Source: a virus
Lineage: Duplodnaviria; Caudoviricetes
Strand: one strand, 5' to 3'
IMG/VR virus record: IMGVR_UViG_3300031998_000005
Length of the DNA stretch: 64,000 bases
A program made the translations under genes and the position numbers. Every line of letters starts with the position of its first letter. Position 1 is the first letter of the stretch. Positions 13,141 through 31,942 of this stretch are shown piece after piece. Under the pieces are notes generated by a model. The model had not been told where the DNA came from. It did not search any database and saw nothing but the letters and a program-made list of their open reading frames with translations.

Positions 13141-14820
13141 TTAGAGTTCGGGTTCGGGCATACCCGCAGGGTTCGGGGCTTCACCAGGCTCGCCATCGGA
13201 TGTCAGTTCTTCACCACCACCCTCTTCACCACCTTCGGGAGAGTATTCCTGTTCCACTTGGTCAATCACGGAGTCTTCGTCTTCTTCGGAGTCGGCTTCA
13301 CCACCGTCGGCAGAACCGCCTTCGTCATCAGCGACAATCTGCGTGATAGCGTCAGCCAAGATACCGATGACGTTCATATTGTCTTCGTTCTTGTGGTAAG
13401 ACAAAGCGTTCTTCAAGGTCACGCAGGCTTCGCCAAGTTGCTTGAACGATTCCACTGCGTTCTTCACTGCGTCTTCGGCATAGATAACCTCGTCATCAAA
13501 CTCGCCTGCAAGGGCAGCGTCCTTGACGAGATTATCACAGCAAGTCAGCACGGACTTGGTAAGAACCTCAAATTTCTTGCCAAGGGAAACACGCTTTCTT
13601 GCGGTGTAGGATTCCACCACGATACCGACAACAGCAAAGGTTTCTTCCACATCCCCGAAAGTATCGGAAGCGTCAAGGGCTTCGTCTTCCAAGCCAAAGA
13701 ACAAGGACGTGAACGAATCCCAAAGAGAAGAAATCTTGTCTTTGAGCGTGGACACCAATTCTTTGAGTTTGTCAAGCAGACCCTCGGACACAAGCGATTC
13801 GCCCGCTTTCGGGAGTGAAGCGATGTCGCTCTTGGAAAGCGTAGAAAGGTTGGTCTTGATAATCTGTGTCGGAGTGGACGCTTCTTTCACAATCTGTTCA
13901 ATAAGGTCACGGAGTTCCTTGAACTGCTTGGGGTCTATGATGGCTTCTTCAAGTTTCGGAGCAGTTTCCAACATAGCGTTCATACGTTCAAGGACAGGGG
14001 TAAGGCTGTTCTTTGCGAACTTGTCCTTAACACCATAGGTAGCCCTAGTCACGGTCACAAGTTGAACCACATCGTCAGCGTCCATAAGACCATCAGCGAT
14101 ACTATCCTTGATAGTCTGTGCGTCCACTTCAATGGCTCGTTTGGCATTGTCCATCCAAGCGGTAACAACCTTGTCGCCACGGGTAGCATAACGGCTGTCA
14201 AGAACTGTCAGCAACTGCATAACATCGGGGATGTTAGCATAGTCGGCATACACGACTTTAAGGGCTTCTTTGAGAGCGTCTTCAATGTCGGCTGCCGCCT
14301 TGACTTCGGGCGACTTGTTGAACGAGATAGCGTCCTTGATACCCTTGACAGACTGCTGTTTGAGCAAGTCCACTTTCTCGGAGAACTCGTTGAGTTTCTT
14401 GATGGACGCTTCCAAATCTTCCTTGGACTGCTTGAGGTCTTCGGACTTGGCTTTCAAGTGCTTGCGATGTTCTTCAAGCACGTCCAGGATTTCGCCAAAG
14501 TTGCGGAGTTTGGACTTGTCCTTGATAGTGACCATACCCGCACCGAACTTGGACGCTTCGGACTTCTTGGATTCGTTATACATCTGCGAAAGTTTCTTTG
14601 CAAAGGCTTTCGGACTACCCGAACGAGCGTCCAAACCCACAATTCCGTGGTCGTTAGCATACATACCGATAATGCTTTGGGGATTACACCCTAATTTCCG
14701 CAATTCAGCATTAAGTTTATCCATCCAAATTTCGTCTTCACGATTTTCGGACTGCTTCCCGAACTTACGGGTCGGCTGCACCGATTCAGTAGTATGGTTC
14801 TTAATTGTCATCTTGGACAT
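13141..14820 (-). CDS. putative prohead core/internal protein, coiled-coil, with tag leader
   Basis: MSKMTIKNHTTES leader, NESKKSE linker, highly acidic C-terminus. Confidence 0.55.
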   Translation of the reverse strand: MSKMTIKNHTTESVQPTRKFGKQSENREDEIWMDKLNAELRKLGCNPQSIIGMYANDHGIVGLDARSGSPKAFAKKLSQMYNESKKSEASKFGAGMVTIKDKSKLRNFGEILDVLEEHRKHLKAKSEDLKQSKEDLEASIKKLNEFSEKVDLLKQQSVKGIKDAISFNKSPEVKAAADIEDALKEALKVVYADYANIPDVMQLLTVLDSRYATRGDKVVTAWMDNAKRAIEVDAQTIKDSIADGLMDADDVVQLVTVTRATYGVKDKFAKNSLTPVLERMNAMLETAPKLEEAIIDPKQFKELRDLIEQIVKEASTPTQIIKTNLSTLSKSDIASLPKAGESLVSEGLLDKLKELVSTLKDKISSLWDSFTSLFFGLEDEALDASDTFGDVEETFAVVGIVVESYTARKRVSLGKKFEVLTKSVLTCCDNLVKDAALAGEFDDEVIYAEDAVKNAVESFKQLGEACVTLKNALSYHKNEDNMNVIGILADAITQIVADDEGGSADGGEADSEEDEDSVIDQVEQEYSPEGGEEGGGEELTSDGEPGEAPNPAGMPEPEL

Positions 14821-14831
14821 AACCCTGCTCC

Positions 14832-15548
14832 TTACTTAATTTTCAAATTCTTGTTCGGACGAACACCAAGGTTCTCGGCATACACATAATACGGCTGCGA
14901 AGCACCTTCCATAGTTGCGTCCACATAAACATAGGTTTCTTCAAAGACGGCATCGCCCTCGTTCGTTTCCAAATCGTAGTGTCCGTCATCTGCCATAGCC
15001 TGTTCGGTCTCCGAAACGTCTAACAAGATGTTCGTCCACCCACGTTTATCGGCAATAGCCACGGCTTCTTCCAAAGCACCTTCGGCATTATCGTCATCCA
15101 CGTCCACGTAGATGCCCGTGGTCGTATAACCACTACCCGACCAAATACTAACCTCGGTAGGCAGGAACATTTCTTCGGACGGATAATATGACACAACGCC
15201 ATAGGACTGCCCATCTGCGATGTTCACAGAATAGGGATAATCTTCATCGGGCATATATCCGTTCTCGCCCTCAATCTCACGGGTCGTGAACAATTCATTG
15301 TCCACGAACAACTGCATAAGTTGGCGGGCTTTATCTACAATCTCGGACGATGCTTCGGAGTCTTCAATAATGATGACATCCTTTTCAGCGTCATAACCCA
15401 AAGGCAGTTCCTTGCCGTCCACCACAATAAAGGACTGCTCCCCTTCAAGCACATCAAGGGCAGCGTCCTGCGGGTCTTCGGCTTCGGGGTATAGTTCCGA
15501 CAAGTCTTCGGACGTAAAGTAAAACTTTTGGTTATCGGGTTCAAGCAT
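14832..15548 (-). CDS. acidic putative internal-head cargo protein
   Basis: Very Asp/Glu-rich; ends in LKIK; N-domain resembles a module of 18305..22102. Confidence 0.55.
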   Translation of the reverse strand: MLEPDNQKFYFTSEDLSELYPEAEDPQDAALDVLEGEQSFIVVDGKELPLGYDAEKDVIIIEDSEASSEIVDKARQLMQLFVDNELFTTREIEGENGYMPDEDYPYSVNIADGQSYGVVSYYPSEEMFLPTEVSIWSGSGYTTTGIYVDVDDDNAEGALEEAVAIADKRGWTNILLDVSETEQAMADDGHYDLETNEGDAVFEETYVYVDATMEGASQPYYVYAENLGVRPNKNLKIK

Positions 15549-15624
15549 AAATTACTTACCTGTAAATAACTATTCGTTAGAAATATAACTAAAAATCAGT
15601 ATAAGCGAAAAGCCTTGCATACGG

Positions 15625-15651
15625 AAAAGCACCCCATTTCTAGGGTGCTTT
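15625..15651 (-). terminator. terminator-like hairpin
   Basis: AAAGCACC...GGTGCTTT. Confidence 0.6.
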
Positions 15652-15667
15652 CGCATTTCACAGGCAA

Positions 15668-17137
15668 TTAAAAGATTACGAGATAGTTCCCCTTTTCGTG
15701 CTTGTAGGCTTGTAGGTCGCCATCGTCAATAGCAGCCTCAATACATTCTTCCTTGCTCTTGGACTCGTCCTTGAACTTATCGTCAAGGTATTCGTCATAC
15801 ACCTCGTCAGCATCGCACCAAGCGGTGTATTGGAACAGGTTGTCAAAGAACCCGCAAGCGTCTTCAATTTCGCCCATTTCGGAGTAGTATTCCCACAGGG
15901 CATCCCAATAATCTTCGTTGTCATCAAGGTAGGCTGCGGACGCACACAGACGCATAAACATATTATAGTCTATGCCCATCATAATCTTGCCACCGACACC
16001 CTCGGATTTCTTACGGGATTCGTTCTGTCCGTGTTCTTCACGCCAATCATCCACAAGCGTAAAGCCCAAACGCAAAAGTTCATCATCTTCGGAAAGCGTA
16101 TCACGAATATCCGTGCCATACACCCCCATAAGATAATCTATCAAATCACCGCAATCTTCATCAGCAACGCACCTGTCCATCAGTTCTGCGAACTTGGGTT
16201 TCTTCCAATGGTTCTTATGAACATCTGCGTAAATCTTTTTTGCTTCGGGCAAAGTAAGATTATTGATAACTTCCTCGGATTTCTTATTTTCAGCAGTGTT
16301 TTTCATAGCACCTTTCTCCCTACAATACTTGCAAAGACCACCATAGCGGTCATAATCATACTCGGTCATAACCGCACCACAAGAGTCGCAGCGTTCCATA
16401 CTCTCTTTCTTGCCGTCCTTGCAGGATTCGGGTTTCTTGGATTCGCTCAACTCGCCACCCAAGACCTTTGCCAATTCTTCGGCGGCTTCCTTGTTAGGCA
16501 GATGAACGTAGAATATGTTTTCGTAATAGTAGTCGGCTCGTTCGTCACCGCCTTCTATCTTGATAGTAAATTCGGGGTCATCCTTTGCCTGGTCTTCATC
16601 AAAGACAATATCATCGCCCTCACCCTCATAGGTATAATACTTGGAGAGAACATCCACCACATCTTCAAGCACATACTCGGCATCGGCATACCCTATAAGT
16701 TCTTCAAAACCATCATAGGTTTCAATTTGAGTAGAACCCCTTTCGTTCTTCTTGGATTCGGACTTACCCGCCTGTTTCAAGCACTTGTCAATAAGCGGGA
16801 AGGGGTCAAAGTCACCAACGTGTCCGTCAGCCTCCCCTAGAACATCGCAATCAGCCGTGTCATATTGACACGTAAGCCAAGAGTGTCCGTTTTCCAAATC
16901 AGTGACAAGAGTCAGCATAAATTCAGTGTCGGGGGCCATTCCCTCGACATTCTTAATGCTGCAATGCCACTCGGCATATCCCTCGGAACCACCATCATTC
17001 CAAGCGTCAATCACATCGCCCTTGTCGCCAATCACAGACTGCACACAAGAACGAAATTCGGATTCAAGGTTCTGCCCATAGGCATTTCCGTATTCTTCCT
17101 GCCCATAGTCTCGTGCAAAATTTTTAATAGCGTTCAT
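15668..17137 (-). CDS. acidic multi-module polyprotein with ESKKxE linkers
   Basis: Linkers ESKKNE, ESKKPE, ENKKSE, ESRKKSE; includes a CxxC..CxxC module. Confidence 0.7.
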   Translation of the reverse strand: MNAIKNFARDYGQEEYGNAYGQNLESEFRSCVQSVIGDKGDVIDAWNDGGSEGYAEWHCSIKNVEGMAPDTEFMLTLVTDLENGHSWLTCQYDTADCDVLGEADGHVGDFDPFPLIDKCLKQAGKSESKKNERGSTQIETYDGFEELIGYADAEYVLEDVVDVLSKYYTYEGEGDDIVFDEDQAKDDPEFTIKIEGGDERADYYYENIFYVHLPNKEAAEELAKVLGGELSESKKPESCKDGKKESMERCDSCGAVMTEYDYDRYGGLCKYCREKGAMKNTAENKKSEEVINNLTLPEAKKIYADVHKNHWKKPKFAELMDRCVADEDCGDLIDYLMGVYGTDIRDTLSEDDELLRLGFTLVDDWREEHGQNESRKKSEGVGGKIMMGIDYNMFMRLCASAAYLDDNEDYWDALWEYYSEMGEIEDACGFFDNLFQYTAWCDADEVYDEYLDDKFKDESKSKEECIEAAIDDGDLQAYKHEKGNYLVIF

Positions 17138-17149
17138 CGTTATCTCTCC

Positions 17150-17842
17150 TTATGCGATATTGCCATCTTCAGTGAACTCGTATTCACGCCATTCAATTTC
17201 GTCCTTGATGTCATCATCGGACACTTCGTAGAACCAATCATAGCCGTCATCTCCAAACTGACTATCTATGTGACCCATAACATCACGAGCATAGGTTTCA
17301 AGTTCGTTCAACAAACCTATTTCGTCATCAGTCAGTTCCACGTCATAGTCGGGAACGACCTCAAGGCGGTCAGCCAACGAGTAGCCGTAACGATTGTTAT
17401 ACGCAAGGTCAATATCATAAATATCTGCCTTGTCGCACACAGCCTTGATAGCGTCCTTGTCCGAAAGGGGCTTGATGTTAGAACCCGTAAGCGGGTATTT
17501 AGACACGTCCGCATTCAGCAAATCATCTACACGCAATTTGCCGTAAGTATTAAACCCATCGCCCTGGGAATAGGACAGGGAATACTGCACTTTCAAATCG
17601 GAGTTCGGGAACAATTCATCAAGACACGTTACACACGAATCCGAGAACGTGGAGTAATCATCGCTACGAATACGCAGGATTTCTTCTTTCACTGCGTCCT
17701 TTGCCGTTTTCTTGGCTTCATCGGAAAGTTCATCGTAGGAATAAACGTCATAACTAGGCGGTTGAATCGTCCGCTTTTCGGAACGCTTATTCTTGGCGAG
17801 GCTTTCAATCTTCTTGTTCATAGAACACTTAAACTTTTTCAT
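17150..17842 (-). CDS. acidic phage protein (VYxYDELSDEAK...EYEFTEDG family) with CSMNKKIES leader
   Basis: Recognisable widespread phage/plasmid domain of unclear function. Confidence 0.65.
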   Translation of the reverse strand: MKKFKCSMNKKIESLAKNKRSEKRTIQPPSYDVYSYDELSDEAKKTAKDAVKEEILRIRSDDYSTFSDSCVTCLDELFPNSDLKVQYSLSYSQGDGFNTYGKLRVDDLLNADVSKYPLTGSNIKPLSDKDAIKAVCDKADIYDIDLAYNNRYGYSLADRLEVVPDYDVELTDDEIGLLNELETYARDVMGHIDSQFGDDGYDWFYEVSDDDIKDEIEWREYEFTEDGNIA

Positions 17843-17857
17843 AGTTCCGTCCTTTTA

Positions 17858-18292
17858 TTAAAGTTTAGACGCTGCCAAAGATACAGCCCCCGCAAGAGAA
17901 ACCATATCTTCCTTTCGTTCGTCCATAGCCTTCAGCAACTGACGGAGCGATGGAACACCCGCCAAACCGCTGTTACGATACATTTCCGCTTCGTCTTCGG
18001 GGTCAAAACCATCGGCATATTCTACAAGTTCGTCTGCCATCGCAGAAATGGTTTCAGCAAAATCTTCCCCTGCGTTCCACACCACAGAAAACGTAGCGTC
18101 ACCACCTGTAGAATAATCATAACCCGAAATCTCGGCACAGATTTCACCAGGACGATTTTCGGAAACATAAGCGGATTCAAACATCGTCCCCGCCTTTCCC
18201 ATCACACCTTCAAGCCAATCTCGGATAGCGTCATAATCGCTATAGGCTTCGTTCTTCTTGGATTCACGAACCTTAATCTTCATCTTGGACAT
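17858..18292 (-). CDS. tagged acidic cargo protein
   Basis: MSKMKIKVRESKKNE leader. Confidence 0.7.
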   Translation of the reverse strand: MSKMKIKVRESKKNEAYSDYDAIRDWLEGVMGKAGTMFESAYVSENRPGEICAEISGYDYSTGGDATFSVVWNAGEDFAETISAMADELVEYADGFDPEDEAEMYRNSGLAGVPSLRQLLKAMDERKEDMVSLAGAVSLAASKL

Positions 18293-18304
18293 AATATATT
18301 CTCC

Positions 18305-21300
18305 TTACACAAAGTAGAACAGGTTGGAACTACGGGCAGTAATCACATACTTTTTGCCCTCGTTATCACGGAGCAGGGCACCGTTCATTCCGTAAGTTCC
18401 ACGGCTCACACCGATGGTTTCAATGCCCTTCTTGCGGAGTGCCTTGGCTTCTTCATCGGAAATGGTCGTGATGTCTTCGGCTTGACCAAAACGAGCCATA
18501 TCTTTCAGTTCCTTCTGCTTCAAGGTAAGGCTCTCGGACTTCTTGGATTCATTTCTAGGGTCATACAAAATACTTGCACGATTAAGACTAGAAATAGGCA
18601 AACTAAATTCCTTACCTGTATCTACGGACTGACCCACAAATGTGCGAGGTTTTAGTTCACGAATATACTGCTTTACCCCATCAAGACTAATCATCATACC
18701 TACAACGAATTTAGTCTTGCCGTGCTTAAAATAGTCACCATCGCTATAACAATCCTTACAGAAAGCCCGATTACCCTCTCCCCAAATAGGGTCATCTGTG
18801 GGATTGCCACAGATAGAACAGATTACAGTTGCTTTCTCGGACTTCTTGGCTTCTTCCTTGCATTCGGGCAGATAGTCGCCTTGGAAAGTCTTGGTAGTAG
18901 CATAATACCACTTGCCGTCCTTATCGCCAAAGTAAGTCTGTCCAACAAGATTGCCGTTAATATCCATAGCATAGCCCGCAGTGTGGAGCCACTGCTTATT
19001 ACGAATATCGTTGAATTGTGCAGGCGTAGTAATCTCAACTGCGTCCAACGTCTTCATCTTGTTAATAAGGTCGGCACGGCTACGATACATACGATTACCC
19101 AACTTCTTCGGGGGCAAACCTTCGGTCTGCTTGCTTTCGTCATTAGCCTTGATGTCCTTGATTACAGACGGTCCATACTTTTGCAAGTAGGCGTGATAAT
19201 CGTCCATCGTCACGATTTCTTCGTAGGCACGACTATCCTTGTCAATAACATTAGTCACGGCTGTAGAAGCCCAACGCTTTAACTTTTCGGGCAGTCTGTC
19301 TTCAAACCAATCGTAGGCGACTTGCCACATAAAGTCAGTGTCTTCCTTGTCAATAGCGTCATCCTTGCCGTAGCCATAATACTTTTTCTTGGCTTCGGTC
19401 TGCTTGCTTTCGTTAGCAGGGTGTTCCGCAATCAACTTTTTAAGGTCGGCAGTAAGGTCATCCCACAGGTCTGTCAGTTTGTCTGCGGTGTAAGCCTTAT
19501 CCCACTCACGGATAACGCCAGGACCGATACCATCTTCATCAAAATCAAGAATATACGAAGCATTATCCGTAGTGCCATCATCGCAAATACCAAGAGCCAC
19601 AAGGACACCTGTGCCATCGGGCAACCACGTATAACATTCAACGTAATCGCTACTACCATTATCGCTATCCAAAGCCTCCGTATCATCAAGACCCAAATCA
19701 GCAAGAGTATTGCACAGGTCGCTGTATGCTTCGGAACCTTCTATTTCGGGGTCGCAATAGAAATAGTTTTTAAGTGTGTCGTGTCCGTATTGGTTCTTGG
19801 CTTCGGACGGCTTACCATCTGCGAAAACCTTGCGGTCAAGATAGAAACCCGCATCGCTAGGGTCATCTGCAAAAGAAGCGGAGTCGTTAGCCATTATCCA
19901 ATCGTTCAAAAGCCCCGCAGCCTTACTCACGCTACGTTCTTCATCGTAGTAAGTCGCCAACATATTGACGAAATGATTACCTTCTTTATCAGTAACAACC
20001 TTGCCACGCTTGGCAAGCCACTTGCTAAAATTCTTGATGTAGCGTTTACGCAATAACGCCATCACGTCCTTTTCAAACTTATCCGCTTCGGGGTCGGCAT
20101 CGTAGTTCACGAAATCGCCAACCTTGAACGTAGCGTCCGCTTCGTTCTTCTTGGTCTTATCGTCCTTACAATCCTTGCCCTTACAGCCCTTGTCATCGTC
20201 ATTACCCTCGGACTTACCGCCTTCGGAGTAAATGTCAAAATGCGGACTGCCGTTCACGCCATCCATAATAGCAACGTAGTCACCATCATCACTAGAACCT
20301 GTCAGTTCGCCATTGGCGAGTTTCTTGACAAGTTTTACGGCTTTATCGCCACCCTTATGGTCAGTAGTCAGCACTATAAGCATTTTAGGTTCACGACAAA
20401 GACCAAGCGGGATTTCTTCGCCATCAATAGACACATAGTCCTGGTCAAAGCAAGAGTCTACAAAGTCATTCAGCCTTTGCAAGTATTCGTCCATAGCATC
20501 GGGGTCTTCATCCCAATTCTCGCCATACTCGTCAATAATATCCTGCAACCTGTCTGCGGGGAGGTCAAGTTGCTCACAGGCTTCATCGTGGGTCATAACC
20601 TCGGCACCACGCCAAATATCTTCGTAGGCTTCGGACTTATCGCCCTTGGCGTAGTAGTCCATCTTGTTATCAAAGGCTGCGTATCGTGCTTTCTTGCGAT
20701 AGTCGGCAGTTGTCTGCTTGTCGCTAGACGAAGCCCAATAGATGTCAAACGAGTCGCCCACAATGTCGCCATTCGGCTTTTCCTGTTCGCCTGCCATAAC
20801 AATCACTTGCACAACGCCATCATCATCCTTGTAGGAATCAGCAAGTTCTTTCGCAGCATTGATAGCGTCATCTTCGTCATAGAAAGTTTTAGCCGCCTGC
20901 ATATCGTCCAAGCCTTCCTCATCGCCATCGGCATCAATGCGAGTAAGGTCCAGGGTGAAGATGTCCTTGTTGCCCTCGGCTTCGGACTTCTTGCTTTCAT
21001 CCTTTGCGTTAAGACCAAATGTTGAAGATATGCCCAAATCGTCATCAACGCAAAGGTCAAACCACTTCTTGCCAAAGGCTTTAAGGGCATCACGGTCATT
21101 GCCGTAAACATATACGGCTTTACCACCTGGAGGCAGTCGGGGGTCTTCACCCAAGTTGCGGGCGTATTCTGCACCCTTCGCAGCGTCTTCGTTAGACGTG
21201 AACACGATGACGAAGTAATCGGAGCCTTCGGCTTTATTAGACTCGGATTTACCACCAAGGACAGCATAAATCTTACTAACAAGTTCATCATCAAAATCAG

Positions 21301-22102
21301 CCCAATTAGTGCTTTCTCCCGTTTCGTCTTGAAACTCCACGGTGCCATCGCCCCAAACATTGACTTGTCCATAAGTGTGTCCGTCGTATTCAATCGGGTC
21401 AATCATAACTGCATCGGACGAGTCCCATTCAACTTCAATGCCGTCCTTATCACGATAGCAAGAGTTTTCGTCATCCCAAGTCCAACCCGCAGCCTTGGCA
21501 GCGTAGTGGTCCATATTATACTTGGCATAATCGTCAATAGACAGACCCTCGGACTTTTTGGATTCGTTAATAATAATACCCATAGCCTTAATATCGGGGT
21601 CATTCGCCATTTCTCTATGCAAATCAAACAAAGGCTTATACTTGTCTAACAGTTCTTTAGTAAACACGGAACCCATCGTAGAATACCCTGTATCGCCAAG
21701 CATAATCTCACCAAACTTGCCAAGAGAGTTTGAGCGTATTCGCAACTTACCACCAAGTTCTTTTGCTCTCTTACGATAAGCGTCCAACGTGGCTTCGGAC
21801 TTTTTGGATTCGTTAGACATAGACCAGAACCCGAAGTCCGCTCCATCGCCTTCGCTTGCACCAAAGTAGCAACCGTCGGGAGCGATTTCATTGAGCAAGT
21901 CAGTGAGTTCATCCACGACCCATCCCATAGTTTCATCGTCAAGGTTCTTCCAATCTTCAACTTCGGGATTTTCCTTGATATATTTGTCATACTTATCCTT
22001 GCCGTAGGTCTTCAAGACACCAAGGAATTTCGGGATAAGGTCATCGGATTTGAGAGTTCCACTAGACACGGAACGGTCACGCAAGTCTTCAATGTTTGCC
22101 AT
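18305..22102 (-). CDS. 1265-aa polyprotein of about 12 small domains joined by ESKKSE/ESKQTE-type linkers
   Basis: 4x ESKKSE, 2x ESKQTE, plus ESNKAE, EAKKSE, KKNE and KSE variants, spaced about 80-150 aa apart. Confidence 0.8.
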   Translation of the reverse strand: MANIEDLRDRSVSSGTLKSDDLIPKFLGVLKTYGKDKYDKYIKENPEVEDWKNLDDETMGWVVDELTDLLNEIAPDGCYFGASEGDGADFGFWSMSNESKKSEATLDAYRKRAKELGGKLRIRSNSLGKFGEIMLGDTGYSTMGSVFTKELLDKYKPLFDLHREMANDPDIKAMGIIINESKKSEGLSIDDYAKYNMDHYAAKAAGWTWDDENSCYRDKDGIEVEWDSSDAVMIDPIEYDGHTYGQVNVWGDGTVEFQDETGESTNWADFDDELVSKIYAVLGGKSESNKAEGSDYFVIVFTSNEDAAKGAEYARNLGEDPRLPPGGKAVYVYGNDRDALKAFGKKWFDLCVDDDLGISSTFGLNAKDESKKSEAEGNKDIFTLDLTRIDADGDEEGLDDMQAAKTFYDEDDAINAAKELADSYKDDDGVVQVIVMAGEQEKPNGDIVGDSFDIYWASSSDKQTTADYRKKARYAAFDNKMDYYAKGDKSEAYEDIWRGAEVMTHDEACEQLDLPADRLQDIIDEYGENWDEDPDAMDEYLQRLNDFVDSCFDQDYVSIDGEEIPLGLCREPKMLIVLTTDHKGGDKAVKLVKKLANGELTGSSDDGDYVAIMDGVNGSPHFDIYSEGGKSEGNDDDKGCKGKDCKDDKTKKNEADATFKVGDFVNYDADPEADKFEKDVMALLRKRYIKNFSKWLAKRGKVVTDKEGNHFVNMLATYYDEERSVSKAAGLLNDWIMANDSASFADDPSDAGFYLDRKVFADGKPSEAKNQYGHDTLKNYFYCDPEIEGSEAYSDLCNTLADLGLDDTEALDSDNGSSDYVECYTWLPDGTGVLVALGICDDGTTDNASYILDFDEDGIGPGVIREWDKAYTADKLTDLWDDLTADLKKLIAEHPANESKQTEAKKKYYGYGKDDAIDKEDTDFMWQVAYDWFEDRLPEKLKRWASTAVTNVIDKDSRAYEEIVTMDDYHAYLQKYGPSVIKDIKANDESKQTEGLPPKKLGNRMYRSRADLINKMKTLDAVEITTPAQFNDIRNKQWLHTAGYAMDINGNLVGQTYFGDKDGKWYYATTKTFQGDYLPECKEEAKKSEKATVICSICGNPTDDPIWGEGNRAFCKDCYSDGDYFKHGKTKFVVGMMISLDGVKQYIRELKPRTFVGQSVDTGKEFSLPISSLNRASILYDPRNESKKSESLTLKQKELKDMARFGQAEDITTISDEEAKALRKKGIETIGVSRGTYGMNGALLRDNEGKKYVITARSSNLFYFV

Positions 22103-22117
22103 AATGCTAACCTGTCG

Positions 22118-24275: not shown

Positions 24276-24293
24276 AATGTCTTCTCCTTATGG

Positions 24294-24860
24294 TTAGGCT
24301 TTCTTGCCAATTTTGGAACGGAATTTCGCACGGGCTTCGTTGCAAGCCTTTTTACGGGCTTCGGCAGAACCCTGCTTGGATTCAGCCTTCTTCGCAGCAC
24401 GGCGGGCTTCAAGACGCTTGCGGAACGCTTCTGCACGAGCCTCATTACGGGCGGGAGCAGTAGCCTTGTTAGCAGAACGTCTGGCTTCAAGACGCTTGCG
24501 GAATGCTTCGCGGCGGGCAGCCTTGCGGGATTCTTCTGCGTCCTTGGGTTCTTCGCTACCTTCAACAGACGCAGAACCGAGAACTTCCTCTTCTTCCACA
24601 TCTTCCTTGGAGTTAGTGAGAACAGCGACAGTCACCGAGTTTTCGTTTTCCGGGTCGGGAGAAACGACAACCTGGATGTCCTTGTCTTCATCAGCGAAAA
24701 CGACTTCCGTTTCAGCAGCGTCCAACTTAACGTCGCCAACTTCAACGATGTTGTCATCTTCACGGAGTTTCTTTTCGGCTCTACGGGCTTCAAGACGCTT
24801 GCGGAAAGCAAGAGTGCGAGCCTCGTTGCGAGCAGAGATAGAGCGTTTGTGAGTAACCAT
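24294..24860 (-). CDS. scaffold / prohead core protein
   Basis: Start moved to MVTHKRS (24860, AAGGAG RBS); directly upstream of the capsid gene; 3x AFRKRLEARR around an acidic core. Confidence 0.65.
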   Translation of the reverse strand: MVTHKRSISARNEARTLAFRKRLEARRAEKKLREDDNIVEVGDVKLDAAETEVVFADEDKDIQVVVSPDPENENSVTVAVLTNSKEDVEEEEVLGSASVEGSEEPKDAEESRKAARREAFRKRLEARRSANKATAPARNEARAEAFRKRLEARRAAKKAESKQGSAEARKKACNEARAKFRSKIGKKA

Positions 24861-25046
24861 AATAATGGTCTCCTTGTTAGGGTTCTTGTTTTTTCTAGTG
24901 AAGCGGGAAACCCGCTCTCCTACAAGGGTTAATTTGTGCGTAATGCACGAATTGGCAGGGAAATTGCCTACCCTTTGACAACAGAATATAATAAAAAAAT
25001 TATGCGATTTCGCAAAAATCGCAAAGAAAATGTCAAAAAATGTCAA

Positions 25047-25091
25047 ATATAACAAGATACCTAATTCTACGTTGTAGGTAATTTGTTATAT
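25047..25091. promoter_or_regulatory. inverted pair of the ATATAACAARWTACCTA box (N11 spacer)
   Basis: ATATAACAAGATACCTA-attctacgttg-TAGGTAATTTGTTATAT, upstream of scaffold/capsid. Confidence 0.7.
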
Positions 25092-25141
25092 AAGGTAGAT
25101 ATAGTATTATATTTATTTTGTATGTAATCCTGTGTGCATAC

Positions 25142-25170
25142 AAAAAGAGTTCCGATTGCTCGGAACTCTC
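25142..25170 (-). terminator. rho-independent terminator
   Basis: GAGTTCCGA-N4-TCGGAACTC followed by a T-run. Confidence 0.75.
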
Positions 25171-25200
25171 TTGATGATTTTGTCGTAATTGGAATACGGG

Positions 25201-26607
25201 TTAATCCTCTTCGGACCAAATTTTACGAGCGTATTCAGTTGCTTCCGCAGAACCAAAAGGAGAGCCATCCAAAGGACTACCACTCAACACGCCATCCACC
25301 CATTCTGCAAATTCATCGGCAGTTCCAGAATAACCACCAAAGCCATCCAATTCTCGCATAATGGCATACTTACCAACGATTTCGGCGGCATCAGCATCGT
25401 TAATCACAAAGTCATCGTTAGTATGCGACAAGATTTCATCACATACTGTATCTAATGCGGTTTCTGCGTTAGATACAACAAAGTGCGAAAGGCTACTCTC
25501 GTTCTTCTTGGAAACACTCTCTTTCTTCTTCTGCATAGAACAGATGTTGGACTTGCTTTCAAAACTACCCCAACCCGTTGCAGGAGTCAGTCCACTAGGA
25601 ACATCAAAGCCCTTTTCCTTAACAATCTTAATAAGTTCGGGCATATCTTGGGGGCATTCTGCCATCGCCAACCGCAGGGTATTATTAACCTGGGCTTGAT
25701 TACGAGGATTCCAATTTTTGAACATCGGGTGCATTTCTTGTAGTTTGGCAAGGCTTTCCTTCTTCTTCTGCATAGAACAGGTGTGCTTCTTGGCTTCCTT
25801 CTTCTTGGATTCATCCACATAAACAGCATTATACGGACCCATTTCCTTACCCGTAGCACCACGATAAATCATAGACAAGTCATCACGGAAACCAAATCCA
25901 GGATGCTTAAAGCCACTACCGTCTTCAGCCGTTGCACGATGACGACCGTTCTTCCAAGAATAGTTCATAATGAACTTACCGTTAGAAGTCACATCCACGG
26001 AGTCATTATCCTTCATCGTAATCTTTATCCCCATTGTGGGATATGCCTTACTGTAATAGTCCTCGTAGTCCTTCCAAAACTGCGGATTACGCCAACAAGA
26101 CATCTTACCAAAATCGGGATAGTTCTGGTGAATGTCATACAACATAAACATCTTTTCGTTTTTCTTGGCTTCCTTCTTCTTGGACTCCATCAAATCCAAA
26201 GCAGTAGTCCCTTCCTCGTTCGGCTCGCCATACTTCTTCCAAATGGCTTGGGCTTCATCGTTATACCACTTGACATCAAAATTGTCATCGGTATAAACAA
26301 CCTTGCCAACCGCCATATCGGTGTCCCAAACTTCGCCCGACTTTTCATCATAGGGCATATAGAAGTCGGAGTAGTCCATCACCATCAGATTGCGATGCTT
26401 ATAGCCAATCTTGGAACAAAGGGTGTAGCCGTCCTGCTGATACAGGTCTTCTTCTTCATCGTAGCCCTCGCCCCAACCCATAACGAAACACAACTCGGTC
26501 CCGTCATCAGTTGTTTCAAGAGTCTTCCACCACACCACCGAACCCGATGTAGTAAGGGTCTTGATAGCGGTGTTAAAGTCCTTTCCTGTAATCTTCTTCA
26601 GTGCCAT
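25201..26607 (-). CDS. four-module polyprotein with ESKKKE and CSMQKKKES linkers
   Basis: 2x ESKKKEAKK, 2x CSMQKKKES. Confidence 0.75.
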   Translation of the reverse strand: MALKKITGKDFNTAIKTLTTSGSVVWWKTLETTDDGTELCFVMGWGEGYDEEEDLYQQDGYTLCSKIGYKHRNLMVMDYSDFYMPYDEKSGEVWDTDMAVGKVVYTDDNFDVKWYNDEAQAIWKKYGEPNEEGTTALDLMESKKKEAKKNEKMFMLYDIHQNYPDFGKMSCWRNPQFWKDYEDYYSKAYPTMGIKITMKDNDSVDVTSNGKFIMNYSWKNGRHRATAEDGSGFKHPGFGFRDDLSMIYRGATGKEMGPYNAVYVDESKKKEAKKHTCSMQKKKESLAKLQEMHPMFKNWNPRNQAQVNNTLRLAMAECPQDMPELIKIVKEKGFDVPSGLTPATGWGSFESKSNICSMQKKKESVSKKNESSLSHFVVSNAETALDTVCDEILSHTNDDFVINDADAAEIVGKYAIMRELDGFGGYSGTADEFAEWVDGVLSGSPLDGSPFGSAEATEYARKIWSEED

Positions 26608-26626
26608 AATACACCTTTCCTTTGCC

Positions 26627-27298
26627 TTATTCGGCTTCTACGTTAATTTCCTTATATCCGTCCTTGAACGAATAAGTTTCAAACTGCTTTTTGACTTCTG
26701 CCAAGAACTTATCCGCATTCGCCTGCGTCATCTGTTCTTCGGTCAATTTCATAACCACATCCAGGTCATCTTCGGGATGGCGACCATAGGTATAGTCAAA
26801 ACTGCGACTAATACGCCCGTGAAGTGTATGTTCACGCCCAAAGTTGTAAAGCCAAATCTCGGCATAAGCGAAAATCTCGCAACCTTCGCTCCACCACTGA
26901 TTTTCAAAGTCGTAGAAGTCATCGGAACGGAGGTCGCATTCCACGCCTTCCTTCTCGCATTGTTCCTTGTAGGCATCTTCGCACTGCTCCTGCAAGTAAT
27001 CGTAGTCCTTGTCAATCTTGTCATCTGCGTAGCCTTGACCGACAATGTTGTAGGAAGTGGTCATCCAAGTCTTTTTAACACCGCCATCGTTGTGGGAGAT
27101 ATATCCGCTGTAATCATCACGCTCAATATCTTCCACACCATCACCTAGTTCATACCAGGCATCACACATACCGCCACAAGACTGATTCACGTCATAGTTT
27201 TCAAGGATTTCGGTAGCCCCGTCCTTGATAAAACTATCGTAGAACTTCGCCCCTGCGGAACCGCTAGACTCGTGAACTCGGATTTTCATTTTAGACAT
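26627..27298 (-). CDS. tagged acidic cargo protein
   Basis: MSKMKIRVHES leader. Confidence 0.7.
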   Translation of the reverse strand: MSKMKIRVHESSGSAGAKFYDSFIKDGATEILENYDVNQSCGGMCDAWYELGDGVEDIERDDYSGYISHNDGGVKKTWMTTSYNIVGQGYADDKIDKDYDYLQEQCEDAYKEQCEKEGVECDLRSDDFYDFENQWWSEGCEIFAYAEIWLYNFGREHTLHGRISRSFDYTYGRHPEDDLDVVMKLTEEQMTQANADKFLAEVKKQFETYSFKDGYKEINVEAE

Positions 27299-27342
27299 AG
27301 GACTACTCTCCTTAAATCTTTCTCAATGCTGAAATATACATT

Positions 27343-28323
27343 TTATTTTTCAGTGAACTTGGACAGGTCGGCAGAACAAATCTCGTAAGTGCCCAAGTTG
27401 TAGTGGACTTTATCGCCCGAAGGCTTGACAATGCCCAACTCGGCAAGTTTCTGCAACAGCCTGCCGTCCATACTAGAACTTGCAAAAAATTCATTAGTGT
27501 CTAACGAATACCCAGGCAAGCACACAGAAACATCCGTATAAATCTCGCCATCGTCACACTCGGCAATCAAGGCAATACCATTCGTCATAGCGTATTGTTC
27601 CAAGCGGACCGTGAGATTATTTTCTTCCCCATAGGCTTTATACGTGAAATACTCCGTCCGCTTGCCGATAGGCAACTTACTCTTGCGAGCCTCGGCTACG
27701 CCTTCTTCAACCTTGTATTTGTTATACATTTCAATGGTCCACTGCTCGGCTTCTTCAACCGATGTGGTTTCCTTGATTTCACTACCATTAAAGTTTTCTG
27801 CAACATTGAACGTGAAAACACTTGCACTCAAACACACTTCCGCATCGGGAGAATACCAAGCGTCTACGACACCTGGAATGTCCGCAAGGTCGTTAATGTC
27901 GGACAACGAGCCAAACAATTCCCAATCCTTGCCGTTGCTATCCGCAGCAATCTGCTGCAAGGCATCACGGATAGATTCAACATCCACAAAAGCCACAAGT
28001 GCAGGAGCGGACGGCAAAACCGCCTTCTTGTATTCCTCCTGCATAACCTTTTCAACTTCTTCCCTGCTCGGACGGTCCTTAAAGGCAACCATAAGGTAAT
28101 TATCCTTTACGGTAGCCCTATCCACGTCAAGGGATATGTTTTCAATATCCCAAGCCACATCGGGGTCAAAATCCTCGGTGCCCTTGAATACCGCAAGTGC
28201 GTGTGCGGTATAACAAGACGGCAAGAAATCCCCAATTTCGTTCTTCAAGGACTGGGGAAGAAACAGGCTTTCGGCTTCCTGTTTCTTGCTCTCGTGCAAA
28301 CGGATAGACAATTTCTTGGACAT
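27343..28323 (-). CDS. tagged cargo protein with C-terminal DUF4313-like domain
   Basis: Start moved to MSKKLSIRLHES; C-domain (Y..NGIAL...YTDVSVCLP...L.ELGIVKPSG..Y) fits the DUF4313 pattern. Confidence 0.65.
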   Translation of the reverse strand: MSKKLSIRLHESKKQEAESLFLPQSLKNEIGDFLPSCYTAHALAVFKGTEDFDPDVAWDIENISLDVDRATVKDNYLMVAFKDRPSREEVEKVMQEEYKKAVLPSAPALVAFVDVESIRDALQQIAADSNGKDWELFGSLSDINDLADIPGVVDAWYSPDAEVCLSASVFTFNVAENFNGSEIKETTSVEEAEQWTIEMYNKYKVEEGVAEARKSKLPIGKRTEYFTYKAYGEENNLTVRLEQYAMTNGIALIAECDDGEIYTDVSVCLPGYSLDTNEFFASSSMDGRLLQKLAELGIVKPSGDKVHYNLGTYEICSADLSKFTEK

Positions 28324-28338
28324 TGTGATACACTCCAA

Positions 28339-28614
28339 TTACTTATATTTTTCCAACTGCTGAAAGACATAACTAAACGCATCGTTAATGCGTTCCTGCT
28401 TTCGGGCGAGATTTTCCGCAATTTCAGTAGCAGTGCCATACGCAGAATCGGCAGCACCATCTTGAATGTCTATAATACTCCCCCAAAGGGATTCTATGGG
28501 AGAGCGACTACCGATGATAGCAGAAATGTCTTTAAGTTCATCCTGCAAATTTTCAAACTCGCCCTGCAAGGACTCGTTGCTTTCGTGCAAACGGATAGAC
28601 AACTTTCTAGGCAT
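28339..28614 (-). CDS. tagged small helical cargo protein
   Basis: MPRKLSIRLHES leader. Confidence 0.65.
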   Translation of the reverse strand: MPRKLSIRLHESNESLQGEFENLQDELKDISAIIGSRSPIESLWGSIIDIQDGAADSAYGTATEIAENLARKQERINDAFSYVFQQLEKYK

Positions 28615-28617
28615 ACC

Positions 28618-29655
28618 TTAACCTCCAAGGATGTAAGAAATCAGGCTGCCATCATTGGCTTCGTCCTTCTTGATAGCCTTGGCTTCCAAGACCTTGAACG
28701 TCTGCGGTGCAGGCTGTTCACGCTCAATGCTTTCGTAAGTAGCACCCGCCTTGCGACGCTCCTTAACGTAATCTTCATTAAGCCCGTTCTTGTTGGCGAA
28801 TTTCAACTCACGGATAGTTTCTTCGGACATCTTGATTTCTTCCTGCAAGTCTTCCACGAACTTGACGATAGACTGCTTGATGTCCTCGGTCACCTCGGTA
28901 AAGTCTTCAAACTTATACGTGTCGTTAGAGCCGTCATCGCAGTTGGACATTTCACAGCCGTTCTTGTCAAGGCTTTCAACGATGTAGGTGCTTCCGTCAA
29001 GTTCAACGGGTGCCCCAAGTTCGTTAGCCAAGGAAAGCAGGCTTTCAGCAACACGTTCGTTCACGGATTCTTCAAGGGCTTCCTTCTTCTTGGATTCCGA
29101 AATAACCTTGGGCTGTGCGTCAAGGAAACCAGGGTCTTGAACAAAGTCAAAGCGTTCAAGTTTGTAAGTCTTGGGGTCAAGAATGTCGTTGCCATCTTCG
29201 TCCTTGCCTTCGTAGTCGCCATCGGCACGGGAACTGACATACATCGTAGTTCCTGCACGGAGAATGGTGTAAAGGGTCTTACCCATATCCGTATTGTAGA
29301 TGACCGATTCAGCAATGCCCGTCTTCCAATCAATGTTGCGGGTAATATGGGAGAACTTGCCCTCGGCAATATCTTCGTCAGTGATTTCGGCTTCGTGTCC
29401 GATACGACCGAACATCTGTCCGTTCTTGAGTTTGCGTTGCACATCTTCGTCTTGACCCGCAACTTCCCAAAGTTCTTCGGTGTAAAGACGATGATTACGG
29501 CTTACCTTGCCAGGGCAGAAATGCTGACCCTTGACAATGGCGAGAATAGTGCCGCCGCTCTTGGCAACCTCGGATTGAGCGGACTCGTCCACACGGGCAA
29601 TATCGTCCACGAACTCGCACTTAAACGGGATATAATCTTCTGCAATTTTCTGCAT
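28618..29655 (-). CDS. prohead core protease (T4 gp21-like)
   Basis: SRNHRLY, GRIGH (catalytic His), SHI, TDMGKTL, VSSRADG (catalytic Ser), FDFVQDPGF; ESKKKE after the domain. Confidence 0.92.
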   Translation of the reverse strand: MQKIAEDYIPFKCEFVDDIARVDESAQSEVAKSGGTILAIVKGQHFCPGKVSRNHRLYTEELWEVAGQDEDVQRKLKNGQMFGRIGHEAEITDEDIAEGKFSHITRNIDWKTGIAESVIYNTDMGKTLYTILRAGTTMYVSSRADGDYEGKDEDGNDILDPKTYKLERFDFVQDPGFLDAQPKVISESKKKEALEESVNERVAESLLSLANELGAPVELDGSTYIVESLDKNGCEMSNCDDGSNDTYKFEDFTEVTEDIKQSIVKFVEDLQEEIKMSEETIRELKFANKNGLNEDYVKERRKAGATYESIEREQPAPQTFKVLEAKAIKKDEANDGSLISYILGG

Positions 29656-29704
29656 AGTAAACTAACCTTCCTTATCTACAATAGGTGTAAATGCTACCAC
29701 AAGT

Positions 29705-30001
29705 TTATTCCTTGTAATCCATAATCTGCCTAATAAGGGCATCTGCCCATTCATCCATCGGGATTTCATCAAAAGACGAACCCCATACATCGGAGTAGAA
29801 CTCATTACTAGGTAAATCATTCATCACGTTGTTAATAAGTTTACCAAACGGACCGCTATTAAAAGAACCTAGACCTAGCATCAGTGTCCACCATCCCTCA
29901 CGTATTTTTTCAACGGCACGGATAAGGTCTTCTTTAGATTTTGGTTTTTCAAAATCTTCGTTCTGCTTGGTTTCGTGAACCTTGATAGTCATTCTACCCA
30001 T
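29705..30001 (-). CDS. tagged cargo protein, paralog of 31637..31942
   Basis: MGRMTIKVHE leader. Confidence 0.65.
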   Translation of the reverse strand: MGRMTIKVHETKQNEDFEKPKSKEDLIRAVEKIREGWWTLMLGLGSFNSGPFGKLINNVMNDLPSNEFYSDVWGSSFDEIPMDEWADALIRQIMDYKE

Positions 30002-30005
30002 AAGG

Positions 30006-31625
30006 TTATTCTCCTAAAAATTCAATGAGATTTTCATACGGGGTTTCACCGAAATCTTCGTAGTTCAAGTAACTATCGTTAATATCATCCTTATCCCATA
30101 CAGCACGGATATTGTCTAACAACTTGCGGAGCAGTTTCTTATCATATCCTGCAAGGAACGCATTATAGAAATCAATCGCTGTAGGAATAAAGTCGGGGTC
30201 GTGTTCAAGCAACAGGTTAAGTGCTTCTTCATTATTCGTTTCGCCCACGACTCGTTTCCAATCTTCCACAAAATTCAAATCCCGTTCACTATCCCAACTA
30301 TAACGATAGGGATAACTACCATCCTTATCTGCGGGAGCATCTGTGTATTCGTCCCAACCCGCATAAAGCCACGGTTTGTCGGGTGTCGGAGCAGTTCCCG
30401 CAAAAAGTTCCTTCATAGTATCTACATCATTATTGAGAATAGCCCAACCCATAGGGTCGTGGTCATCCACGTAGAACCCATCAGCGGAACTTTCGTGTGT
30501 AACAATATCACCGCTACCATAGACAGAAGCAAGGTCAGCACCGTCGCCACGGGCTTCGGAGTGTTTAGCACGGGGCTTACGAGTAGCCCGCTTTACATTT
30601 CTTACAAAGTCATCCCACGAATCCCCTGGGTGCTTACGAACGCCTGCTGAAATACCTTTAAGAACAATATCCAAATCGTCCAAAGTATCACAAGTCATAT
30701 GCTGATGACCATACATAATGAAAGACACTTCATAATGCGTTTGAATATCACTAGAACCACCAAGACCCGTGAAAGTTTCAGTGTAGATAATGACTTCGCC
30801 ATAGGGAGAATTATAAACTATCTTCTGCTTTTTCGGGTCAATCTTGGCATCGGGGCTGTATTTCTGTGCGACTTTAAGAGCGTCCTGCAACGCCTTACGG
30901 TCCTTGGCATACATACTGCGATAAGGTGCTTGGTCGCCTGTGCGTTCAAGTTCATCGTCATCAAAGACGGATTCGGTAGGCTTTTCGTTCTTACGTCCGA
31001 CCACGCCTGTCGGTGCGACCCCAAGCGATGATGCAGATGCACCATCTTCGTTCTTAAAACCCTTGGACTTCTTCCAAACCGCATATTCGGACGGGTCATC
31101 AATCTTTGCAATAACCCCGTGGAAACCATCAGTTACCATATTGAACCAATCCTTCACAATCAGTTCAATCGCATCGTAAGCCATATCAAACGGCTCGTCC
31201 TGCAAGCCTTGATTTACAACCGCCACAATGGGTTCTGCACCAACTACGTGAATATCAAGAAGATGGGAGTCCGTGCCCTTACTATAAACGGAGTGGCAAG
31301 CGTCTTCATCCTTACGATAATCCGACTTGACATAGAAATACTTACCGCTCGGATTGTCAAACCCACGGATAAACAATCCCTTAATCACAGCGTTCAAGTC
31401 ATCCCATTGGTTAGACAAATCCACATCGTCCAAGACAGATTCCGAAATCTTCGTAGCAGAACGGATAGGAGCGGTCACACTTGCAAGGTCGCCAAAGTCG
31501 CCATAAGTGCGGGGGAGCAAGGATTCATAACGAGCCTGGGCTTCGTCCTTGTCCTTAAAGGCTTCAACTTTCTTCTTGCCGAAGAAATCCGTATAGGAAA
31601 TAGTCCAATTAAGTCCTTTTGTCAT
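30006..31625 (-). CDS. multi-module putative internal head protein
   Basis: ISES/KNE/PTES/HSE/THES sites; internal NEDGASASSLGVAP peptide. Confidence 0.6.
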   Translation of the reverse strand: MTKGLNWTISYTDFFGKKKVEAFKDKDEAQARYESLLPRTYGDFGDLASVTAPIRSATKISESVLDDVDLSNQWDDLNAVIKGLFIRGFDNPSGKYFYVKSDYRKDEDACHSVYSKGTDSHLLDIHVVGAEPIVAVVNQGLQDEPFDMAYDAIELIVKDWFNMVTDGFHGVIAKIDDPSEYAVWKKSKGFKNEDGASASSLGVAPTGVVGRKNEKPTESVFDDDELERTGDQAPYRSMYAKDRKALQDALKVAQKYSPDAKIDPKKQKIVYNSPYGEVIIYTETFTGLGGSSDIQTHYEVSFIMYGHQHMTCDTLDDLDIVLKGISAGVRKHPGDSWDDFVRNVKRATRKPRAKHSEARGDGADLASVYGSGDIVTHESSADGFYVDDHDPMGWAILNNDVDTMKELFAGTAPTPDKPWLYAGWDEYTDAPADKDGSYPYRYSWDSERDLNFVEDWKRVVGETNNEEALNLLLEHDPDFIPTAIDFYNAFLAGYDKKLLRKLLDNIRAVWDKDDINDSYLNYEDFGETPYENLIEFLGE

Positions 31626-31636
31626 ACAAGCGACCC

Positions 31637-31942
31637 CTAGCGGTTATGAACCTTGATTTTAAGATGACTTTCAGTCTTGCCATTACCCAGGCTTTCAAGA
31701 TACTCAATCATAGCATCGCAAAATTCTGCAATCCGCAGTTCATCATAGGAACGTGGAGCGAACGAATCGCCATACAACGCATCTATAGCAGGGACATCTT
31801 CGCAGGCTTGGTTGAACCAACCACCATACTCGTTCTCACGCCCAGGAATTACAACGGCATCGGAGTTTATAAGGGTTTCGTTGAACCCATCACGCATTTT
31901 CTTAAAGCCGTCTATAAGTTCTTGTTTCGTAATGTTAGACAT
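31637..31942 (-). CDS. cargo protein with C-terminal tag (TESHLKIKVHNR)
   Basis: Paralog of 29705..30001. Confidence 0.65.
   Translation of the reverse strand: MSNITKQELIDGFKKMRDGFNETLINSDAVVIPGRENEYGGWFNQACEDVPAIDALYGDSFAPRSYDELRIAEFCDAMIEYLESLGNGKTESHLKIKVHNR

Follow-up and report, generated by a model that had tools for sequence, protein, structure and literature searches.

The genomic locus

The present work deals with a short peptide leader shared by otherwise unrelated proteins of an uncultured phage, which is known as the IMG/VR virus record IMGVR_UViG_3300031998_000005 (G000; 215,686 base pairs (bp), estimated completeness 99%). The window, i.e., the whole stretch of DNA that was analysed, comprises 64,000 nucleotides (nt) and is the reverse complement of positions 114,370-178,369 of this record. 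Features are given below in window coordinates, and positions designated as "genome" refer to the 215,686-bp record, where about 350 open reading frames (ORFs) were obtained by a crude call.

The minus strand of the window carries the phage structural block. It contains the genes of a prohead (head maturation) protease of the T4 gp21 or peptidase S77 type with a C-terminal extension (28618-29655; phrog_207, E = 1.6e-21), of a probable scaffold protein (24294-24860), of the major capsid protein of the gp23 type (22629-24275; PF07068 with 38.8 bits, phrog_138) and of the tail sheath (9222-11486), all on the minus strand; tail fibre genes are present in the window as well. The assignment of the scaffold is based on its position between the protease and capsid genes, its charged composition and three AFRKRLEARR repeats (repeat family D7). 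In the window, the genes for proteins with the leader and with the other tags described below have the genes for the protease, the scaffold and the capsid protein on one side and that for the tail sheath on the other.

A megablast search with the head module against cultured phages gave no match, and the closest cultured capsid proteins and proteases showed 26-41% identity. By its protease, the nearest cultured relative is Escherichia coli phage IME392, with a gene layout of terminase, portal, protease-scaffold and capsid and without leader genes.

The leader and its distribution

Six proteins encoded by the minus strand of the window begin with a leader of the same kind, and all of them were found where a preliminary description of this DNA had placed them. 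Three of the leaders are MSKMKIKVRE, followed by SKKNE, in a 144-amino-acid (aa) protein (leader 18263..18292, gene 17858-18292), MSKMKIRVHE in a 223-aa cargo protein (27269..27298, gene 26627-27298) and MGRMTIKVHE, followed by TKQNE, in a 98-aa protein (29972..30001, gene 29705-30001). Two adjacent genes encode the longer forms MSKKLSIRLHE, followed by SKKQE (28291..28323, gene 27343-28323, 326 aa), and MPRKLSIRLHE (28582..28614, gene 28339-28614, 91 aa). A 559-aa coiled-coil, acidic-tailed protein bears the variant leader MSKMTIKNHTTE (14785..14820, gene 13141-14820), and its orthologues start with MSLKIKTHKFE and MALRINNHTKDFAGKLHE-SKKSE.

The core [ILVM][KRT][ILVN][HRK]E occurs 19 times genome-wide, and 16 of these 19 occurrences lie at most 14 residues from the protein start; one further occurrence sits after an in-frame methionine with a Shine-Dalgarno-like site upstream. 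The strict N-terminal pattern was found in 14 proteins, compared with 0.23 on average and 3 at most among 1000 residue-shuffled proteomes. Counting the MSKMTIKNHTTE variant, the whole genome encodes 18 leader proteins, whose genes are located at genome 100-109 kilobases (kb) (8), in the head module (6), at 196 kb (1) and at 202-204 kb (3). Twelve leader genes thus lie beyond the window, and the preliminary description, made from the window, covered only its share.

The leaders are 9-12 residues long and follow the consensus M-x-x-[M/L]-K-I-[K/R]-[V/L]-H-E. In an alignment of 17 leaders by their terminal Glu, this residue (P1) and Ile at P5 are invariant (17/17 each), the other preferred residues being S/N at P9, K/N at P8, M/L at P7, K at P6, K/R at P4 and H at P2. 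Position P3 is occupied by Val (11), Leu (5) or Ile (1), the commonest residue being Val, unlike Leu/Ile of T4. Many leaders continue directly into S-K-K-x-E, as in ...VRE-SKKNE and ...LHE-SKKQE.

No mutual BLASTP match at E <= 0.01 was obtained for the mature parts of the 18 leader proteins, so that these proteins are indeed otherwise unrelated, as had been claimed, and paralogy was ruled out. A secretion signal was ruled out too, the tag being polar and basic and without a hydrophobic core. The mature proteins are mostly acidic, with an isoelectric point of 4.1-5.05 in 15 out of 18 against a proteome median of 6.3.

The leader is conserved as a peptide. Its codons vary synonymously (AAA/AAG, ATC/ATT/ATA, GTT/GTG/CTC/CTG/TTG, GAA/GAG), Lys is replaced by Arg through multi-base changes, and nothing is conserved in the DNA upstream of the leaders except for a Shine-Dalgarno-like GGAG. 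Because the codons and the upstream DNA vary while the peptide stays, an RNA-level element was ruled out as the main cause of the conservation. The leader is selected as a peptide and is portable.

A copy of the tag is also found at a C-terminus, again in agreement with the preliminary description: SHLKIKVHNR (31640..31669, minus strand) belongs to the gene 31637-31942, whose product ends in GKTESHLKIKVHNR. K-T-E|S stands before this copy, and the orthologue from a relative (L002; 69% identical overall) has an identical tail. A C-terminal copy behind a K-T-E|S site fits a removable tag, judging by the sequence.

The second tag and the modular proteins

Another motif, CSM[NQ]KKxES, occurs six times genome-wide in five proteins, in three of them at residues 5-6. 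The 230-aa protein of the gene 17150-17842 begins with the alternative N-terminal tag MKKFKCSMNKKIES (17801..17842), in which the motif starts at residue 6. In the 468-aa modular protein of the gene 25201-26607, two internal CSMQKKKES junctions are located at residues 277-285 (25753..25779) and 356-364 (25516..25542, in the 53-nt repeat D12). All three copies are on the minus strand and had been noticed earlier.

A shorter motif, E-S-K-K-x-E, was found in about 14 proteins of the genome, including the protease (one copy) and two modular proteins encoded by the minus strand. One of these, 1265 aa in length (18305..22102), contains about ten junctions of the ESKKxE type; the other, of 489 aa (15668..17137), contains two. 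The modules of the 1265-aa protein recur in other combinations in relatives, and some of them begin exactly at junctions. From these sequences, the CSM motif is, in our reading, an alternative form of the leader-type tag, and the ESKKxE peptides are read as joints between cargo modules.

Relatives and interchange of tags

Two near-complete relatives were found in IMG/VR, G001 (IMGVR_UViG_3300033463_000010; 213 kb, protease 87% identical) and G002 (215 kb, 71%). They encode about 13 and about 7 leader proteins, respectively, plus CSM-tagged ones. The sets of tagged genes differ among G000, G001 and G002, even at 90% identity of the capsid protein. In distant relatives, leaders stand on head-region genes: MIIKVHE and MIIRVHE in L051 (protease identity 62%), MAMKIRVRE, MTMKIKVNE and MALIKVRE in L052 (54%), and MLRIKLIE together with MGIKVLKE, the latter on a gene in the scaffold position, in L053 (47%). 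Thus, leader use is clade-wide, on changing cargo. A scan of IMG/VR for the MKIKVHE coding pattern yielded 16 stretches, six of which belong to this clade and have a true leader context; the other ten lie at the very start of an ORF or in no real ORF and look like chance, and this DNA pattern was not found in a leader context outside the clade in the scan.

The cargo family of the gene 26627-27298 (alignment A3, 14 sequences) has a constant mature start, S..G..F[YW]D.F. This start stands behind either MSKMKI[RHS]VHE or (K)CSMQKK[IK]ES, usually with x-K-K-x-E in between, and in G001 the same domain is the second one in a 345-aa protein, where it directly follows ...NESKKSE. The leader, the CSM tag and the internal linker are accordingly interchangeable on what these sequences indicate to be orthologous cargo, and this is the strongest comparative evidence obtained. 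The idea of CSM as a second tag is therefore borne out insofar as the tag is real, and is not borne out as regards an independent second system, since it interchanges with the leader.

The 559-aa protein, the last module of the 1265-aa protein and a ParB-like leader protein encoded at genome 104222 also recur behind other upstream parts; in several of those relatives, the shared part starts at a Glu-terminated junction. If the Glu is missing from its usual place, a hydrophobic-x-Glu turns up three residues further on, as in MSSMKIKVHNISE of G001 compared with MTNMKIRVHE. The C-terminus NLKIK of the gene 14832-15548, earlier proposed as a possible further copy of the tag, is present and reads KLRIK in G002; it is lost in G001 and, being kept in only one of the two relatives, is weak evidence for a tag.

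Head protease, capsid protein and probable cutting rule

A profile of 18 protease homologues matched T4 gp21 (5JBL) with E = 2.7e-4. For the structural model of the protease, with a mean predicted local distance difference test score (pLDDT) of 77, the 5JBL chains were the sole significant Foldseek matches and the top three (probability 1.00, template modelling score (TM-score) of 0.68-0.70 by target length, root-mean-square deviation of 2.3 Å over 139 columns). The protease as modelled has a fold similar to that of gp21 and herpesvirus assemblin. H87 and S141/S142 are invariant in the 18 homologues, and the two positions aligned with H87 and S141 are Ala in the 5JBL chain as deposited, which we take to be a catalytic-site mutant. 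The match of the protease to Pfam PF03420 reached 21 bits, under the curated cut-off of 27; several homologues (31-74% identity) bear a precomputed PF03420 label. Neither the protease nor the capsid protein, each searched as a single sequence, gave a match in the Protein Data Bank.

Behind the catalytic domain, the protease has a hinge with E-SKKKE (residues 187-192; 29080..29097, minus strand), which is a candidate self-cleavage site; residues 190-193 have pLDDT below 50. At the end of the catalytic domain, [IV]-[ST]-E-S is kept in 15 out of 18 homologues, down to 46% identity; it aligns, as [IV]-[ST]-E|S, with E-I-T-E|S of T4 gp21, and the IME392 protease has V-A-E-S at the corresponding place. 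The second Glu of E-SKKKE is found only in homologues of at least 66% identity.

The capsid protein shows a candidate maturation site, Y-V-N-E65|N, ahead of its conserved core (alignment A2). V-A-E is kept at this place in a 65%-identical relative, and the Glu is lost in the most distant one. A five-sequence capsid profile found nothing in the Protein Data Bank, and for this reason the site could not be mapped onto T4 gp23. Since the conserved hinge site of the protease and V-N-E65 of the capsid protein agree, the cutting rule is likely to be, as in T4, hydrophobic-x-Glu with a small residue behind it. The leaders conform to this rule, so the end of the leader matches the cutting rule of the protease, and this enzyme and the capsid protein are both of T4 type. 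For T4, the rule (L/I-x-E) and the separate roles of targeting and processing residues were described earlier; an Asp in the last position of the T4 tag prevents cutting and leaves loading intact (PMC9026906). The small P3 (A/S/G) of phiKZ and SPN3US is not fitted by the leaders with their V, L or I.

Three copies of RNEAR..AFRKRLEARR are present in the scaffold protein. The scaffolds of relatives begin with M-x-x-FRKKLRE, and a distant one begins with MGIKVLKE. Because these starts resemble the cargo leader, there is a hint that the tag may mimic a self-association segment of the scaffold.

Structure and possible functions of the tagged proteins

The model of the 223-aa cargo protein (gene 26627-27298), built from alignment A3, has a mean pLDDT of 86 and a predicted template modelling score of 0.82. 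For residues 1-12 the pLDDT stays below 50, and the fold, with its first helix, begins at about residue 15. Structural look-alikes of the CSM-tagged protein of the gene 17150-17842 align only from residue 26-27 on. Because the leader is unfolded in the model and the look-alikes start beyond the CSM tag, the tags are, as far as the models indicate, appendages outside the folded domains. No clear fold match was obtained for the 223-aa protein, the best Foldseek E-value being 0.14 and the best VIA-align Z 7.3 (within background).

Searches of Pfam and PHROGs with the tagged and modular proteins gave almost nothing, and a protein atlas search returned only viral hypothetical proteins plus a weak DUF4313 lead. 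One exception was found in G001, where a 246-aa protein starting with MSLKIRLHE (L040:6978-7718, i.e., G001 82978-83718, plus strand) contains an S-adenosylmethionine (S-AdoMet) lyase domain (PF23780, 46.8 bits versus a cut-off of 28, E = 3.6e-12). Behind the lyase come a linker-like D-E-S-K-N-E and a small module at the C-terminus. No sequence match to this protein was found in the Protein Data Bank, and G000 has no orthologue. The T3 enzyme of the S-AdoMet lyase family counters restriction and bacteriophage exclusion (BREX). From its sequence, the G001 lyase is a candidate pre-packaged anti-restriction or anti-BREX enzyme.

Weak matches to ParB-like nucleases were obtained for the leader protein encoded at genome 104222; the ParB-like DdrB is packaged in phage P1 heads (PMC5512222). 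Among the tagged and modular proteins scanned, none matched a peptidase family at E <= 0.01, an absence that does not amount to exclusion.

Transcription context

The genome contains 33 near-identical sigma-70-like promoters (TTGACA-N17-TATATT), none of them in the structural block at 110-175 kb. Their form is TTGACA-N7-GGTATTTTGT-TATATT; two are located in the window (about 1326-1354 and 3287-3315, minus strand) and 31 elsewhere in the genome. They serve minus-strand genes at 5-100 kb and plus-strand genes at 100-110 and 175-210 kb.

Another element, TATATTT[AC] without a -35 box, was found 12-60 nt upstream of nine genes of the structural block, including the leader gene 26627-27298. It also stands before the CSM-tagged genes at genome 187,316 and 202,073, the latter heading the tagged cluster at 202-204 kb. 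Window sites of this element include 12784-12825 and those ahead of the genes at 27298, 15548, 33376 and others. TATATTT[AC] may be the late promoter; we infer the labels "early" and "late" for the two promoter classes.

Upstream of a 388-aa gene (11489-12655), three tandem copies of AATATAACAA(A/G)(A/T)TACCTA are found on the plus strand of the window.

Interpretation and alternatives

In our opinion, the leader is probably a T4-like capsid targeting propeptide that is removed by the head protease; we put the probability at about 60%. This reading is drawn from the short unfolded tag, its hydrophobic-x-Glu end, the gp21/gp23 machinery and the unrelated, variable cargo. In T4, a propeptide of 10-19 residues binds the core by its N-terminal part and is cut at its Glu end, and the capsid targeting sequence (CTS) may serve as an evolutionary route for the loading of varied proteins (PMC9026906, PMC3012670). 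By analogy, binding to the core, cleavage, encapsidation and ejection may be inferred here. The alternating basic and hydrophobic core of the leader (L/M-K-I-K-V) would dock the protein onto the prohead scaffold core, the gp21-type protease would cut at the hydrophobic-x-Glu end and free the mature protein within the capsid, and the freed protein would exit with the DNA at infection. CSMQKKxES would be an alternative form of the leader address, and the ESKKxE junctions would chain several modules behind one address, to be cut apart. Of the portable packaging tag with a non-T4 sequence suggested in the preliminary description, peptide-level selection and portability were confirmed by computation, and cleavage and loading are predicted by analogy with T4.

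Several points weigh against this interpretation. Eleven of the 18 leader genes are located outside the head module. The cluster at 100-109 kb adjoins the structural block on the same strand, and its sole promoter, at 99,906, is of the sigma-70-like type. The cargo is acidic, and the T4 internal proteins were described as basic (PMC9026906). The ESKKxE junctions do not conform to the L/I-x-E rule, as neither Glu regularly has a hydrophobic residue at P3. Homology breakpoints lie within 10 residues of a junction motif in 12% of cases genome-wide, compared with 5% for random positions, and the coincidence is clear only in multi-junction proteins; part of the noise in this test comes from the crude ORF calls and from imprecise BLAST ends, and individual alignments were relied on instead. 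Besides, the phage has no cultured relative, its capsid protein being less than 35% identical to that of any phage of the cultured-phage collection.

It may be supposed that the leader and the junctions are processing signals only, i.e., propeptides cut by the protease from inactive precursors or in the course of polyprotein processing, with loading set in another way or with proteins that are never packaged and act in the infected cell. This would suit the position of leader genes outside the head module, some of them behind sigma-70-like promoters, as well as the junctions as module borders, and only the Glu-terminated end of the leader parallels the conserved site of the protease itself. 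However, six to seven conserved upstream positions (P7 M/L, P6 K, P5 I, P4 K/R) exceed the needs of the T4 or SPN3US protease, and the L-K-I-K-V-H core is also found C-terminally, beyond the cutting site. In addition, a gp21-type protease, as known from T4, is active within proheads, so that its substrates must be there. This explanation is considered unlikely.

Ranked next, and also at a low probability, is an uncleaved interaction tag: an amphipathic strand would join a shared partner (an inner body, part of the tail or baseplate, GroEL or another chaperone, or a host target) and stay attached to it. The alternating K-I-K-V is suitable for strand addition, the tag may be N- or C-terminal, the tagged genes are scattered across four genome regions, and a precedent, the N-terminus of T4 gp23, by which proteins are directed to GroEL, is mentioned in PMC10052503 with its reference 29. 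Against it stand the invariant end Glu with V, L or I at P3, which relocates when lost, the positional equivalence of the tag to inter-module junctions and the K-T-E|S before the C-terminal copy; because of these three features, removal of the tag is the easiest explanation.

Very improbable, finally, is an mRNA-level feature (an AAA/AAG-rich enhancer of translation initiation) or a recombination scar of gene conversion between neighbours as the source of the shared start: lysine codons do stand directly after the start, the leaders of the adjacent genes 27343-28323 and 28339-28614 share a 38-nt repeat of 84% identity (family D15), and the recurring junction-coding DNA (imperfect repeats of 74-93% identity, no perfect repeats being found) could promote shuffling, but synonymous and multi-base conservative changes preserve the peptide and not the DNA, and the motif persists at 47-62% protease identity with other codons and lengths, occurs C-terminally and, on orthologous cargo, is exchangeable for a tag with another sequence.

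On the reading of the leader as a capsid targeting propeptide, a wider picture can be drawn, which we hold tentatively and at somewhat less than even odds. Tagged and junction-bearing proteins of G000 are encoded by 25 genes with 7,235 codons, about 10% of the genome. The jumbo phages of this clade would spend this share on a capsid-addressed payload, with two interchangeable tags at either protein end and with polyproteins chained by joints, which would be cut by the head protease and injected with the DNA as an anti-defence arsenal for the first minutes of infection, including the S-AdoMet lyase of one relative; the modules would be reshuffled at the DNA of tags and joints.

If the proposed function is true, the leader would be a second natural capsid address tag, unrelated in sequence to that of T4, and in uncultured phages the principle of the T4 internal proteins would seem to have grown into a large, modular system of delivery. 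About 25 proteins, mostly acidic, would become candidates for injection, in a class that includes anti-restriction and anti-defence factors. The tag and the joints would provide testable parts for loading foreign proteins into phage capsids and releasing them there, and the combination of a shared Glu-terminated leader with a gp21-type protease could flag such cargo in metagenomic phage genomes.

Additional observations

Seven paralogous genes of about 230-280 aa on the minus strand at genome 48370-90309 encode proteins with HPTQKP, GSGTTA and a C-terminal TGPFH(L/I)(F/Y)GN(I/L)G. By these motifs, they look like DNA methyltransferases, and therefore the phage probably protects its own DNA by multiple methylations.

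In L051 (positions 17292-18647, minus strand; European Nucleotide Archive (ENA) contig NODE_45_length_190986, 62% protease identity), the structural region includes a 451-aa gene that gave a weak match to reverse transcriptase (RVT_1). In G001, the row of cargo genes past the capsid gene is broken by a 400-aa gene on the opposite strand (L004:14429-15631, minus strand; start MFKAYEYRIYPTKEQ...). It may be a mobile-element insertion, since G000 has nothing at that place.

Comparison with known systems

The principle is known from T4. Its internal proteins IPI, IPII and IPIII and Alt carry a CTS that is removed by gp21, likewise an N-terminal propeptide of about ten residues on unrelated, poorly conserved proteins (PMC9026906, PMC3012670). 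The T4 CTS also ends in hydrophobic-x-Glu, and T4 likewise has a protease of the gp21 fold and a gp23-type capsid protein. The cargo of T4 includes anti-defence proteins, as one relative here tags an S-AdoMet lyase, and Alt and gp21 of T4 are also processed C-terminally, which may be compared with the C-terminal copy of the tag. Compared by eye, the leader and the T4 tag, in the sequence that we take it to have, have just the first Met and the last Glu in common. Further differences concern the number of tagged proteins (about 18 here, a handful in T4), the second interchangeable tag CSMQKKxES, the modules chained by ESKKxE, which the T4 internal proteins do not have, the acidic cargo in place of the basic one, and the many tagged genes beyond the head gene block. 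In the literature searched, no paper was found that describes the tag sequence, the second interchangeable tag, the C-terminal use, the joints or a tagged set of this size.

Propeptides of ejection and head proteins, cut by gp245/gp175, are known from the giant phages SPN3US and phiKZ (PMC10052503, PMC5694885), likewise large phages with many head-internal proteins. Their sites also have Glu at P1 and favour Ser at P1', the protease likewise removes its own C-terminal part, for which there is a candidate site here, and the propeptides are cut at several sites. In contrast to the present leaders, SPN3US follows an A-x-E rule, with propeptides that in most cases are long (111-254 residues) and specific to one protein, whereas one short tag is shared here; about 80% of the head proteins in SPN3US escape cutting. 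As judged from the capsid protein and the protease, the phage under study is not a relative of phiKZ, and its leaders have V, L or I at P3.

The modular proteins resemble the polyvalent proteins of phages and conjugative elements (Iyer, Burroughs, Aravind 2017; PMC5512222), which are also long, consist of many small shuffled modules and are encoded beside virion genes. Delivery with the DNA was predicted for them as well, and ParB-like nuclease modules occur among them, with weak matches to such modules here. What defines polyvalent proteins is their recognisable conflict domains, and many have a metallopeptidase of their own, whereas here almost no module could be assigned to a known domain and the scans revealed no embedded peptidase. 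The joints in the present proteins are, moreover, a repeated short peptide resembling a head-protease site. The Dar anti-restriction proteins of phage P1 are reportedly loaded into the capsid at head assembly and injected with the DNA. Their loading follows a hierarchy of specific Dar proteins, in place of the one shared short cleavable tag that is proposed here.

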